IMG/VR virus record: IMGVR_UViG_2778261696_000006
Strand: one strand, 5' to 3'
From: a virus
Lineage: Duplodnaviria > Heunggongvirae > Uroviricota > Caudoviricetes
DNA length: 28,988 nucleotides
The first letter of the stretch is position 1. Every line of letters starts with the position of its first letter. This document shows positions 19,141 to 23,801 of the stretch, in pieces. Both the position numbers and the translations under genes were made by a program. Under the pieces are notes generated by a model that was not told the origin of the DNA, ran no database searches, and saw only the letters and a list, made by a program, of their open reading frames with translations.

Positions 19141-19741
19141 CCGGCTATTACCCGTTGGCTCGTCGCCGCTGGAAGTCGCCGCCGCCGCTGCGTTCTCTGA
19201 GATTCAGCGCGTGCCGGTACCGCTGCGCACCCTGTGGAACTGGCGCACCTGCCCGGTAAAGCTGCTGCCGTATCTGGCGTGGGCGCTGTCGGTCGACAGA
19301 TGGGATGAGAAATGGCCGGAGGCGACAAAGCGCAGCGTCTGCGCGTCCTCGTTTTTCGTCCATCAGCACAAAGGCACCATCAGCGCATTGCGTCGGGTCG
19401 TCGAGCCGCTCGGCTTTCTGATTGAGGTGCGCGAGTGGTGGCAACTCGACGAGGAGCCAGGCACATTCCGCCTCGTTGTTGGCGTCCTCGACAGCGGCAT
19501 CACTGACGAAATGTATCAGGAGCTTGAGCGCCTGATTGAAGACGCCAAACCGGCAAGTCGCCACCTGACCGGGCTGGCTATCAGTCTGAGCTCGACCGGC
19601 GAACTGTATGTCGGCGCGGGATGCTATCACGGCGACGCGCTGACTGTTTACCCCTACACCCCCGAGGAGATTGTCGTCGGCGGTGAATATTACCCGGCCT
19701 CGGCCATCCATTTGATTGATAACCTGAGAGTGAACGCATGA
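19133..19741 (+). CDS. I: Baseplate/tail protein I (P2 gpI)
   Basis: 202 aa, overlaps J end and H start as in P2. Confidence 0.8.
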   Translation: MNDRLLPVGSSPLEVAAAAAFSEIQRVPVPLRTLWNWRTCPVKLLPYLAWALSVDRWDEKWPEATKRSVCASSFFVHQHKGTISALRRVVEPLGFLIEVREWWQLDEEPGTFRLVVGVLDSGITDEMYQELERLIEDAKPASRHLTGLAISLSSTGELYVGAGCYHGDALTVYPYTPEEIVVGGEYYPASAIHLIDNLRVNA

Positions 19742-20856
19742 CCGCAAAATATTTTGCCATTCTGACCAATCAGGGCGCGGCGCGGCTGGCGAACGCGGCG
19801 GCACTCGGTACCAAACTCAACCTGACGCAGATGGCCGTCGGTGATGCGAATGGTACGTTGCCGACCCCTGACCCGTCGCAGACGAAGCTCATTAACCAGA
19901 AACGCATCGCGCCGCTGAACCTGCTGACCGTTGACCCGGCCAATACCAGTCAGATTATCGCGGAACAGATTATTCCCGAGAATGAAGGTGGTTTCTGGAT
20001 CCGCGAGATTGGTCTCTATGACGATGATGGTATTCTGATTGCCGTGGCGAACTGTCCGGAGACCTACAAGCCACAACTGCAGGAGGGAAGCGGTCGCACG
20101 CAGACCATTCGCATGATTCTGGTTGTGTCGAGCACATCGGCAATCACCCTGAAAATCGACCCGGCAGTCGTGCTGGCAACGCGCCAGTATGTCGACGACA
20201 AGATTATCGAGGTGAAAGGATATGCTGATGACCTGATGAAAAAACATGTTGAGGCCGCCAATCCACACAAGCAGTACCCGTTAATCGCTAATGCTCTGAA
20301 AGAAATGGTTGACGCGGGACTGGCCGGCGACGTTCTTAAAAACCTTGGTTTGGGAGAAGGTTCAGCATTACCGGTTGGTGTGCCTGTTCCGTGGCCTTCA
20401 GCTACACCACCGACAGGCTGGTTGAAATGCAATGGTGCAGCTTTTTCTTCTGAAGAATACCCGGAACTGGCAAAGGCTTACCCGACAAATAAATTGCCTG
20501 ATTTACGCGGTGAGTTTATTCGTGGCTGGGATGATGGACGCGGTGTGGATACGGGGAGGGCAATATTATCATCTCAGGGCGATGCCATACGTAATATCTA
20601 TGGTGAGTTCAAGACTGTAAACGCCGAAAATTATTCAATATGGGAATCAGTAGACTCTTTTAAGGGGGCAGTGGTGCCTTTGAACCCCTCAACGGACAAT
20701 AGTTATTTCTCCATAATCAATAGTATGTTGACACAAAGAACAGATAGCTCTGTTTACCCAACAGTGATTGGCCTTGATGCTTCAAGAATTGTTCCAACTG
20801 CAAACGAAAACCGTCCACGAAATATTGCATTTAACTTTATCGTGAGGGCTGCATAA
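19738..20856 (+). CDS. H: Tail fibre protein H, current-orientation variant (constant N-terminus plus variable C-terminus)
   Basis: 372 aa; crossover site inside the gene at 20333-20358 (codes ...VLKNLGLGEG...); C-terminal part carries a phage tail-collar-like motif (PVGVPVPWPSATPPTGWLKCNGAAFSSEEYPELA...LPDLRGEFIRGWDDGRGVD). Confidence 0.85.
   Translation: MTAKYFAILTNQGAARLANAAALGTKLNLTQMAVGDANGTLPTPDPSQTKLINQKRIAPLNLLTVDPANTSQIIAEQIIPENEGGFWIREIGLYDDDGILIAVANCPETYKPQLQEGSGRTQTIRMILVVSSTSAITLKIDPAVVLATRQYVDDKIIEVKGYADDLMKKHVEAANPHKQYPLIANALKEMVDAGLAGDVLKNLGLGEGSALPVGVPVPWPSATPPTGWLKCNGAAFSSEEYPELAKAYPTNKLPDLRGEFIRGWDDGRGVDTGRAILSSQGDAIRNIYGEFKTVNAENYSIWESVDSFKGAVVPLNPSTDNSYFSIINSMLTQRTDSSVYPTVIGLDASRIVPTANENRPRNIAFNFIVRAA
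20333..20358 (+). repeat. Gin/Hin-family recombination site (left), TTCTTAAAAACC-TT-GGTTTGGGAGAA
   Basis: 26-bp site matching the hix/gix/cix consensus TTnTCnnAAACC-nn-GGTTTnnnAnAA; inverted relative to the site at 22202-22227. Confidence 0.75.
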
Positions 20857-21458
20857 TGGATAACGCTGTATTAAATAGCGAGCTTATTGCCACGAAGGCG
20901 GGGAATATTACCGTCTATAGCTATGATGGTGAAACTCGGGAATATATTTCCACTTCAAATGAATATCTTGCCGTTGGTGTTGGTATCCCGGCATATTCCT
21001 GTCTGGATGAACCTGGTATACATAAGGCGGGTTATGCAATCTGCCGTTCGGCAGATTTAAACTCATGGGAATATGTGCCAGACCATCGCGGTGAAATCGT
21101 CTATAACACCGAAACGGGAGACACCAAAGAAATCACAACTCCGGGTGATTACCCCGAAAATACAACCACTATCGCCCCATTAACGCCATACGATAAATGG
21201 GATGGTGAGAAATGGGTGACCGATACTGAGGCACAGCATCGCGCCGCAGTAGACGCGGCAGAAGCACAGCGTCAGTCACTGATTGATACTGCAATGGCTT
21301 CCATTAGTCTGATTCAACTGAAATTACAGGCCGGGCGGAAACTGACGCAGGCAGAAACAACCCGGCTTAACGCTGTGCTGGATTACATTGACGCGGTGAC
21401 GGCAACAGATACCAGCACCGCGCCGGATGTCATCTGGCCTGAACTGCCGGAGGCGTAG
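20856..21458 (+). CDS. G: Tail fibre assembly protein (P2 gpG / Tfa)
   Basis: 200 aa, immediately follows H; C-terminus ...[10 protein letters not shown] typical of Tfa proteins. Confidence 0.8.
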
Positions 21459-21849
21459 GCCATTCAATATCGAGTGCTGTTGAAGTATTAATACGCATCA
21501 ATAGCACTCGATATTTTTTCCATGCCAGTAACAGTTTCGTTTCATCATCTGTTGCCATACCTAAATCAACCGCATCCTGAAGCGGAGCTATTACATTCGT
21601 TGCCTCTGCTATCAGTGCAGATTTCTTTTCATCATTTATTAAGGCTAATTGTTCTGGTGTTGGAGAAGGACGGTCAACAATGACAGGGTGACCGTTCTCA
21701 CCACAGGTAATCATTTTTGTTACACTCTGTGAGTTAATCAGTGTTTTCCACTCTGATTCCGAGATTTCCACTGCATCATCAGGAATATTGGTGCCGTGAA
21801 ATTCAGTCGAATAAAATCCGTTTGTCGATGCAGAATAAAAATATGACAT
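21430..21849 (-). CDS. Alternative tail fibre assembly protein (Tfa'), inverted orientation
   Basis: Track ORF trimmed to ATG 21849 ([13 protein letters not shown]..., the usual Tfa N-terminus); 3' end overlaps G convergently by 29 bp; C-terminus ...DIEWPTPP. Confidence 0.75.
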
Positions 21850-21853
21850 TTCG

Positions 21854-22210
21854 TTAATATCCCATTGCAATGTAATACGCATCAGAAGATGCACCATATC
21901 CTGAACCGGGCGACACAGTAATACTAAATCCAGTGTTCTGGACATTTGTCGCCGATACAGTCGGCTGCCCTGACGCGCCAGTAACGTTCAATGTAACTGT
22001 GACAGCAAGGACTCTTGAGAATGTCATCGGGAACGTCATCCCGTATGTTGAAGATACATTAGGGGAGCCATTCAACTGACCGCACTGTAAAATTAATCCA
22101 GACGGAAATTTTTGCGCAGCAGCCGTTGCGGTATTACTTGACGCGAACAGGCTCATATCAGGTATCTGATTCGCCCCTGTACCTACATTCCTTTTAGCTG
22201 CTTCTCCCAA
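21854..22210 (-). CDS. Alternative tail fibre C-terminal segment (H'), lacks own start; expressed only after inversion
   Basis: Open frame reads through the right crossover site as ...GLGEAAKRN..., in register with GLGE at the left site in H; first codon in track is TTG, not a real start. Confidence 0.65.
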
Positions 22211-22227
22211 ACCAACCTTTTAGAAAA
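22202..22227 (+). repeat. Gin/Hin-family recombination site (right), TTCTCCCAAACC-AA-CCTTTTAGAAAA
   Basis: Inner half-site plus core identical to reverse complement of left site (14/14); outer half-site deviates (CC where the half-site consensus has GG). Confidence 0.65.
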
Positions 22228-22281: not shown

Positions 22282-22564
22282 ATGTTTATCGGTTATGTAC
22301 GTGTATCAACAAATGACCAGAACACCGCATTACAGCGAAATGAACTGGAGTGCGCAGGATGTGAGCTGATTTTCGAAGATAAAATCAGCGGCAAAACATC
22401 AGACTGGCCGGGGCTAAAGAGGTCACTCAGAACCTTGTCAGAGGGCGATACGCTTGTGGTCTGGAAACTGGATCGCCTCGGGTATCTCAACGCTATACAA
22501 AAAATTTCCCGCATCCGTTGCTGATGTCTCAATGTGTCAGACATCGCCCAACACTGACAAATAG
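22282..22564 (+). pseudogene. Serine DNA invertase (Gin/Hin/Pin/Cin family) remnant with internal deletion
   Basis: N-terminal 66 codons intact (MFIGYVRVSTNDQNT...VVWKLDRLG, catalytic Ser present) then frame breaks; a different frame encodes ...STLYKKFPA, which I recall as the extreme C-terminus of Gin; roughly 110 codons of catalytic and HTH domains missing. Confidence 0.75.
22524..22544 (+). promoter_or_regulatory. Candidate late-promoter activator site upstream of FI (ATGTCT-N9-AGACAT dyad)
   Basis: Perfect 6-bp inverted repeat centred about 89 bp upstream of FI ATG; P2 late promoters carry a TGT-N12-ACA-like dyad near -55, spacing here is N13. Confidence 0.3.
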
Positions 22565-22622: not shown

Positions 22623-23801
22623 ATGAGTGATTTTCACCACGGCGTGCAGGTGCTTGAGATTAACGACGGCACCCGCGTCATTTCCACTGTTGCAACCGCA
22701 ATCGTCGGCATGGTCTGTACAGCCAGCGATGCGGATGCGGCAACCTTTCCCCTCAACGAGCCGGTACTGATTACCAATGTGCAAAGCGCCATTGCGAAAG
22801 CCGGTAAAAAAGGCACGCTGGCCGCGTCCCTGCAGGCCATCGCCGACCAGTCAAAACCTGTCACAGTTGTCGTGCGCGTGGACGAAGGTACCGGCGACGA
22901 CGCCGAAGCGCAGACAATTTCCAATATCATCGGCGGAACGGATGAGAACGGTAAATACACCGGCATTAAAGCGCTGTTGACTGCCGAAGCGGTCACCGGC
23001 GTCAAGCCGCGCATTCTCGGCGTGCCGGGGCTGGACACCAAAGAAGTGGCGGTTGCACTGGCGTCGGTCTGTATTAGCCTGCGCGCGTTTGGTTACATCA
23101 GCGCATGGGGATGCAAGACCATTTCCGAAGCAATGGCCTATCGCGAGAATTTCAGCCAGCGCGAGCTGATGGTCATCTGGCCTGATTTCCTTGCATGGGA
23201 TACCACCACAAACGCCACCGCACCGGCATACGCAACTGCGCGCGCACTCGGCCTGCGTGCCTATATCGACCAGACCGTCGGCTGGCATAAAACCCTGTCT
23301 AACGTCGGCGTGCAGGGTGTCACCGGCATCAGTGCGTCAGTGTTTTGGGATTTGCAGGCATCTGGCACCGATGCTGACCTGCTCAACGAGGCCGGGGTCA
23401 CGACGCTGGTGCGCAAAGATGGTTTCCGCTTTTGGGGTAACCGCACCTGCTCTGATGACCCGCTTTTCCTGTTTGAGAACTACACCCGCACCGCGCAGGT
23501 GCTGGCCGACACGATGGCCGAGGCTCACATGTGGGCGGTCGATAAGCCCATTACCGCATCGCTCATCCGTGACATTGTCGACGGCATTAATGCCAAATTC
23601 CGCGAGCTGAAATCAAATGGCTACATCGTGGACGGTGAATGCTGGTTCGACGAGGAATCGAATGACAAGGAAACCCTCAAGGCCGGGAAACTGTATATCG
23701 ACTACGACTATACGCCGGTTCCACCACTGGAAAGCCTGACCCTGCGCCAGCGTATCACCGATAAATATCTGGTGAATCTGGCCGAATCGGTCAACAGCTA
23801 A
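22623..23801 (+). CDS. FI: Tail sheath protein (P2 gpFI)
   Basis: Track ORF trimmed to ATG 22623 (MSDFHHGVQVLEINDGTRV...), matches remembered P2 FI; RBS GGAG. Confidence 0.9.
   Translation: MSDFHHGVQVLEINDGTRVISTVATAIVGMVCTASDADAATFPLNEPVLITNVQSAIAKAGKKGTLAASLQAIADQSKPVTVVVRVDEGTGDDAEAQTISNIIGGTDENGKYTGIKALLTAEAVTGVKPRILGVPGLDTKEVAVALASVCISLRAFGYISAWGCKTISEAMAYRENFSQRELMVIWPDFLAWDTTTNATAPAYATARALGLRAYIDQTVGWHKTLSNVGVQGVTGISASVFWDLQASGTDADLLNEAGVTTLVRKDGFRFWGNRTCSDDPLFLFENYTRTAQVLADTMAEAHMWAVDKPITASLIRDIVDGINAKFRELKSNGYIVDGECWFDEESNDKETLKAGKLYIDYDYTPVPPLESLTLRQRITDKYLVNLAESVNS

Follow-up and report, generated by a model that had tools for sequence, protein, structure and literature searches.

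The locus described here raises the question of whether a tail-fibre switch is locked in one orientation once the DNA invertase beside it has been destroyed. The DNA analysed, hereafter the window, is a stretch of 28,988 nucleotides from the IMG/VR virus record IMGVR_UViG_2778261696_000006. It is 100% identical to positions 1467338-1496325 (reverse strand) of the E. coli EC15 chromosome (NZ_CP060919.1), and also to E. coli EC18. In both strains the window is a complete-looking 186-like prophage located between rplS and yfiB, with genes for an integrase, CI, CII, Fil, a DinI-like protein and a replication endonuclease as well as head, lysis and tail genes. A previous examination of the window, made from its sequence only, had concluded that the switch was probably locked. 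The features that bear on this question are listed below in their order along the window.

19738-20856, plus strand: tail-fibre gene H, 372 aa in the present orientation, with Pfam domains Phage_tail_fib (residues 1-150) and Collar (residues 214-261); WP_100729192.1 in EC15.
20333-20358, no strand assigned: left 26-bp crossover site, TTCTTAAAAACC TT GGTTTGGGAGAA; the inverted-repeat arm spans 20339-20359, and the breakpoint in the isolate EC12 is here.
20856-21458, plus strand: tfa, assembly gene of tip 1, in the expressed orientation; Pfam Caudo_TAP, E=2.4e-32.
21430-21882, minus strand: tfa', assembly gene of tip 2, in the silent orientation; Caudo_TAP, E=4.9e-31; WP_199775210.1 in EC15.
21854-22215, minus strand: alternative fibre tip 2; Pfam Gp53-like_C, E=1.2e-14; without promoter or N-terminus in this orientation.
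22202-22227, no strand assigned: right 26-bp crossover site, TTCTCCCAAACC AA CCTTTTAGAAAA.
22282-22482, plus strand: invertase remnant, codons 1-67; Ser9 is kept, Arg42 is changed to Trp, and the part ends in LDRLG.
22303-22374, no strand assigned: putative recombinational enhancer region; it contains two candidate Fis cores, 22303-22317 and 22352-22366.
22481-22564, plus strand: 3' remnant of the invertase gene, out of frame; GISTLYKKFPAS... followed by a stop codon, corresponding to the last part of the recognition helix together with the C-terminal tail.
22623-23801, plus strand: tail sheath gene FI, the downstream neighbour; the order invertase then sheath is also found in intact P2-like prophages.

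The invertible segment is about 1.87 kb long and contains two fibre tips and two assembly genes. This content had been recognized in the sequence-only reading, and the domain matches (Collar, a gp53-like C-terminal domain and two Caudo_TAP domains) bear it out. The constant part of H extends to about position 20345, whereas its variable tip 1 belongs to the segment. Thus alternative C-termini and their assembly genes are within the segment and the constant N-terminus is outside it. The EC15 annotation treats tip 2 as partial. EC12 has tip 2 joined to the constant part of H as a complete gene of 969 nt, and the other tfa gene, the counterpart of WP_199775210.1, follows on the expressed strand. 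The fusion genes of both isolates are intact, that of EC15 measuring 1119 nt. Inspection of the segment also revealed an 18-nt inverted repeat at 21466-21515 (94% complementary, 14-nt loop) exactly between the convergent tfa genes; it probably terminates transcription in both directions.

The open reading frame at 22282-22524 (plus strand) encodes 80 residues. It starts with MFIGYVRVSTNDQNT...VVWKLDRLG, continues with 13 out-of-frame residues and stops at 22522-22524. Residues 3-67 matched the Pfam Resolvase family (PF00239, E=6.9e-19) over profile positions 2-76 of 145 only, and residues 1-68 aligned with residues 1-68 of Mu Gin (4m6f/3uj3) at E~1e-29. The catalytic serine of the family (Ser9/10 in a YxRVST motif) is present in the sequence GYVRVSTNDQ, and codons 1-67 are intact. 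The catalytic domain is incomplete, lacking the second arginine of DRLGR and helix E. A Pfam search of the remnant gave no match to HTH_7; what is left of the C-terminal HTH is the last ~12 residues of the recognition helix, encoded in the other frame. That second frame, one base off, reads GISTLYKKFPASVADVSMCQTSPNTDK and a stop codon at 22481-22564. It matched residues 170-182 of PinE (VGVSTLYKRFPAG; E=3e-5, pairwise) and residues 172-182 of Gin (LSTLYKKHPAK), and there was a weak match of this short query to the recognition helix of Hin (IGVSTLYRYFPASS, 1hcr; E=2).

We mapped the deletion by aligning the remnant with intact homologues; those of P2-like prophages of E. coli AQ15/W and MEI148 encode invertases of 197 aa. 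The endpoints were taken from an affine global alignment; MAFFT misplaced the gap. Nucleotides 1-199 of the remnant correspond to nucleotides 1-199 of the intact genes, and nucleotides from 200 onward correspond to intact nucleotides from 511 onward, intact nucleotides 200-510 being missing. A single deletion of 311 nt, or 103 codons plus 2 nt (about codons 68-170), thus shifted the frame. The junction is inside GGGT at 22480-22483, with GG microhomology, and the sequence lost encodes the second DRLGR arginine, helix E and HTH helices 1-2. These results agree with the sequence-only reading in that one internal deletion spared the N-terminus with its catalytic serine, put the remainder out of frame and eliminated the catalytic core and most of the DNA-binding domain. 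Its estimate of about 110 codons was close to the measured length, and STLYKKFPA, which it had taken for the last residues of Gin, is indeed a Gin motif but corresponds to residues 174-182 of 193 rather than to the very end. The remnant is a pseudogene derived from the Gin/Pin family and no functional member of it.

The deletion is old. Its junction (CTCGGGTATCTCAACGC) was found in every remnant examined. When 5,426 E. coli genomes were probed with the N-terminal 201 nt, 35 complete chromosomes proved to carry the remnant allele (identity of at least 97%), and so does one PHASTER-predicted prophage record, vB_EcoM-613R3. The sequence-only reading had allowed for a full-length frame that would emerge after correction of a sequencing error; because the same junction is present in 35 complete chromosomes, we rule against such an error. 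We dropped vB_EcoM-613R3 as proof of viable virions in the lineage, as its source paper shows a PHASTER-predicted prophage. Prophages that share the deletion differ from the window by up to ~5%. Codon 22405-22407 is TGG (Trp), and this R42W change is found in all remnant alleles, the residue being Arg in all intact homologues. Arg42 is the conserved arginine of the SDRPGLK motif and is equivalent to Arg45 of gamma-delta resolvase. R42W is a second inactivating change common to the whole remnant lineage. Later lesions include a 4-nt duplication in one sub-lineage and a 1-nt deletion in another.

The invertase gene of E. coli JX21CE33 was considered as a closer intact relative. It is the best N-terminal match (90.5% over the N-terminal 200 nt) but is itself frameshifted, and it was used as a DNA guide only. 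It belongs to a different tail module, the next gene being a reverse-strand tail gene and not a sheath gene. The remnant-bearing prophages of strain 222, AST217 and CH423 have tip and tfa cassettes that differ from those at 20360-22200 of the window, and tfa genes of 396, 441, 444, 453, 594 and 603 nt occur among the remnant-bearing prophages. As varied cassettes accompany the same dead invertase, cassette exchange went on in the lineage.

The segment is bounded by two inverted 26-bp sites with matching central dinucleotides (TT and AA). The window contains exactly two copies of the crossover 14-mer TTCTCCCAAACCAA, one per strand, with 0.01 copies expected by chance. Comparison with the inverted repeat sequence of the e14 P segment (PMC12529663) showed that the e14 pix sites have exactly the same inner half-sites and core (TTGGTTTGGGAGAAGG and CCTTCTCCCAAACCAA).

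Comparison of clonal isolates showed that the segment has inverted. EC12, EC15 and EC18 are from one hospital collection and carry the same prophage at the same site; EC15 and EC18 share the orientation of the window, and EC12 is flipped. Over the 49,001 bp that we compared between EC12 and EC15, comprising the prophage and chromosomal flanks of 12 kb and 8 kb, the sole difference was one block of 1841 nt. This block (window 20360-22200) is the exact reverse complement in EC12, with 0 mismatches, and the 47 kb outside the segment showed zero differences. EC12 and EC15 are one clone, because a second prophage split by IS26 is common to both. A further case was found in CH423 and CH425 from Islamabad (chromosomes of 4,740,904 and 4,740,899 bp), which differ by an exact inversion of 1837 nt with identical flanks and show zero other differences in the approximately 8.5 kb compared. 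The remnant in both of these strains has the shared 311-nt deletion and an extra 1-nt deletion that causes a frameshift. Genome comparison therefore indicates inversion by exchange at the sites, both orientations being seen in two clonal sets only, by comparison of assemblies. AST217 was rejected as a further flip: its cassettes are different, it shares the sub-allele with the 4-nt duplication, and other sequence abuts the right site.

The position of the exchange can be narrowed further. The two repeat arms have a CC/GG mismatch (20343-4 and 22216-7) that stays in place in EC12; therefore, exchange occurred at or inside the central TT/AA dinucleotide. The central dinucleotide is the place at which enzymes of the Gin family cut. 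We considered the possibility that RecA-dependent homologous recombination between the short inverted repeats inverted the segment without any site-specific recombinase. The arms share 15 identical nt (TTGGTTTGGGAGAAG), and the two mechanisms are indistinguishable from sequence alone. Nevertheless, 15 nt is far below the length required for efficient RecA recombination, the exchange is exactly at the Gin-family cutting place in sites identical to the e14 pix core, the chromosome contains an intact invertase of the cognate type (see below), and the same precise event was found in two independent clones. We therefore regard the RecA route as very unlikely.

An assembly artefact could also produce a difference in orientation, and the corresponding segment of the second prophage is in fact garbled in the EC12 assembly (145 mismatches and 41 gaps). 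However, a 21-nt repeat is too short to make an assembler invert 1.8 kb, the block is a perfect reverse complement with clean junctions, and the outcome was the same in the unrelated project that yielded CH423 and CH425. Moreover, an assembler that chose one state from a mixed culture would itself prove flipping. An artefact is thus most unlikely.

Nor is the remnant a credible source of the activity. Its promoter region, start codon and catalytic Ser9 are kept, and frameshifting, for example, might append the C-terminal 27 residues to residues 1-67. The resulting protein would be without half of the catalytic domain, the second catalytic arginine, helix E (the dimer/tetramer interface) and HTH helices 1-2, and would have Trp in place of Arg42. 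In addition, CH423 and CH425 flip despite the extra frameshift that truncates the N-terminal part. The chance that the remnant is still active is practically negligible.

No functional invertase is next to the segment, and other Gin-family invertases were sought elsewhere in the host, as the sequence-only reading had suggested. An intact gene of 594 nt at 4941247-4941840 of EC15, identical in EC12, encodes WP_010835463.1 (197 aa). This protein has a complete Resolvase domain (profile positions 2-144) and HTH_7, and it aligns with residues 1-182 of Gin (E=6.6e-95). The gene is in the tail module of the second P2-like prophage, the one split by IS26, 3.4 Mb from the remnant. It adjoins an invertible segment of its own, whose right site, TTCTCCCAAACC AA CGTTTATGAAAA, has the same inner half-site as the window; the outer half-sites differ between the two prophages (TTTTCTAAAAGG versus TTTTCATAAACG). 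We assume that WP_010835463.1 recognizes the window sites efficiently.

Invertase paralogues at chromosomal loci of the 5,426 E. coli genomes were counted with two probes, the N-terminal 201 nt and a chimera of the remnant with the deleted 311 nt in reverse complement. Further chromosomal loci, each with N-terminus and core, numbered one in EC15, one in EC18, two in EC12, and one each in CH423, CH425 and CH458. Eight genomes (222, 103, FDAARGOS_1280, 2779, 5283, 98210, 98192 and 98224) had no other invertase-like chromosomal locus and all had one orientation, a pattern that would weakly fit a switch frozen only where a helper is absent; these genomes are mutually related and not statistically independent, and the count covers chromosomes only.

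If the switch were locked, the two orientations would represent an old polymorphism that predated the death of the invertase, or separate acquisitions of phages that had been frozen differently. The invertase is certainly dead, and the uniform orientation in the eight genomes without another invertase-like locus is what a locked switch would give. Yet the 47 kb outside the segment, 20 kb of it chromosomal, is free of differences between EC12 and EC15, which also share the IS26-split prophage, whereas the deletion is common to prophages that have diverged by up to ~5%. CH423 and CH425 differ in orientation although both hold the deletion and the later 1-nt frameshift. Because the deletion is common to diverged prophages and the clonal pairs are otherwise identical where compared, the flips occurred long after the invertase was lost. 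We consider a locked switch unlikely. The exact inversions between EC12 and EC15/EC18 and between CH423 and CH425 contradict this part of the sequence-only reading, and in the window's own clone the switch is not frozen. A locked switch could still hold in hosts without any Gin-family invertase.

We favour the interpretation, with a probability of roughly 80%, that the resident invertase is dead and that the segment is still inverted by a Gin-family invertase supplied in trans, since the crossover sites and, as we infer, the enhancer have survived. Such complementation by a Pin/Fin-type enzyme from elsewhere in the host had been entered as a caveat in the sequence-only reading, and it is the reading favoured by the occurrence of both orientations together with an intact paralogue. 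According to this model, a single 311-nt deletion destroyed the invertase once, in an ancestor of the whole prophage lineage. Decay of the remnant then went on, with R42W now in every copy and additional frameshifts in some sub-lineages. What outlived the enzyme in cis are both crossover sites and a putative Fis-dependent enhancer in the first ~100 nt of the gene. The obvious candidate for the helper in EC15, EC18 and EC12 would be WP_010835463.1 of the IS26-disrupted P2-like prophage. The enzyme that flips the segment, the function of the enhancer and the rate of inversion are the parts of the model that we infer.

Wild-type invertases require a Fis-bound enhancer in cis, and the enhancers of Gin, Cin and Hin are inside the 5' end of the invertase gene, as described in the literature of 1985-89. 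In the remnant, a scan identified a Fis-like 15-mer at 22303-22317; a second, at 22352-22366, was read by eye and had missed the A/T filter of the scan. The candidate Fis cores lie where pinE, the invertase genes of P2 type and the remnant show the strongest DNA conservation, a conservation that is confounded with protein coding. A literature search for the exact positions of Fis sites in gin, cin and pin found nothing usable. The Hin enhancer is 65 bp long and 99 bp from hix (PMC3798978), and the putative enhancer region has a similar position and spacing and is inside the retained 199 nt. The 5' part of the remnant may carry a Fis-dependent enhancer.

Among the closest known systems is the e14 P segment with PinE of E. 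coli K-12. Its layout is the same: a constant head, two tips and two tfa genes arranged as convergent pairs, and an invertase gene immediately beyond the right site. In the window, tfa and tip 1, which amount to half of the segment, are ~91% identical in DNA to the tfaE/stfE region, and the N-terminus of the remnant is 79% identical to PinE. Inversion of the P segment by recombinases of other prophages is documented: PinQ/PinR and PinE all invert it, and PinE inverts the Mu G and Salmonella H segments as well (PMC12529663). The two systems differ in that the resident invertase of the window is a deletion remnant, which would leave inversion wholly dependent on an outside enzyme. In addition, e14 is a cryptic lambdoid remnant whereas the window is a complete-looking 186-like prophage, and the outer half-sites are different.

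The G segment of Mu with Gin and the C segment of P1 with Cin are likewise host-range switches of tail-fibre tips that are operated by a serine invertase at 26-bp sites. Unlike the invertase of the window, both of these enzymes are intact and each works in cis on the phage that encodes it, and the segment contents are unrelated except for the tfa family. In Salmonella, the H segment is also inverted by Fin, which the P2-like prophage Fels-2 encodes (cited in PMC12529663 and in PMC4272514, ref. 43); this resembles the arrangement proposed here in that the invertase of a P2-like prophage works in trans on a distant chromosomal segment. Hin and Fin differ from it in being both intact and redundant, and their target is a flagellin promoter and no fibre gene. 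Finally, P2-like switches with an intact invertase (E. coli W/AQ15 and MEI148; prophages of EPEC, PMC4272514) share the order H, tfa, tfa', tip', invertase, sheath, and their invertase genes have 80-83% DNA identity to the remnant. Phase variation of such P2-like tail-fibre loci has been measured in culture (PMC4272514). These prophages encode a 197-aa invertase, whereas the lineage of the window has lost nucleotides 200-510 of the gene. The window system is a Gin/Pin-type tail-fibre switch in its sites, its segment contents and its inversion, but has no resident enzyme. Enzymes of the Gin/Pin family are known to complement one another in trans, and the present case would be one of ordinary cross-complementation.

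It is possible, and we put it forward tentatively, that the prophages with the deletion constitute an orphan-switch lineage in which the invertase was lost, the sites and the 5' 199 nt were kept for the enhancer, and switching runs on the borrowed invertase of a co-resident prophage. If so, switching would operate in poly-lysogens such as EC15, the segment would be frozen where the host has no Gin-family enzyme, for example in the group of strain 222, and phage host range would be controlled by a dependency of one prophage on another. More generally, a pseudogenised invertase beside an invertible segment does not mean that the segment is fixed, because Gin-family enzymes of other prophages recognize the same sites. 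Predictions of receptor or host range for P2/186-like prophages should not take the orientation in one assembly as stable if the strain has any Gin-family invertase. The lineage of ~35 genomes, with hosts that do and do not have a helper invertase, is a natural test set for how far phase variation depends on the enzyme of another prophage; apart from this value, the remnant is an ordinary decaying gene in a known system.

Other invertase-related loci were noted in these strains. In EC15, e14 is absent at icd and there is no prophage at ssrA, where only a 168-nt pinH-like fragment was found. This fragment (1451131-1451298, family codons ~44-94) is between ypjC and ypjA and was missed by both probes; it is another dead invertase, too short to matter. 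EC12 is ~30 kb longer than EC15 after icd (past 3.07 Mb) and has one extra match each to P2-like DNA, the invertase N-terminus and the invertase core. These matches suggest that EC12, the flipped isolate, has a third P2-like prophage with another invertase.

In EC15 and EC12 the second prophage is in two halves ~15 kb apart across the record origin, each ending at IS26 beside a truncated rhaS. The arrangement resembles the outcome of an inversion mediated by IS26 with a break in the H tail-fibre gene; the invertase and the tail genes from the sheath gene to D are still intact. The differences between EC12 and EC15 in this prophage's invertible segment are all within the segment, and PGAP annotated frameshifts and internal stops there in EC12. 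The garbled EC12 segment may be a consensus to which reads of both orientations contributed, a hint, if so, that the segment inverts actively in that culture. The left crossover site of the second prophage is TTGGTTTAGGAGAA in EC15 and TTGGTTTGGGAGAA in EC12, a single-base difference between clonal isolates.
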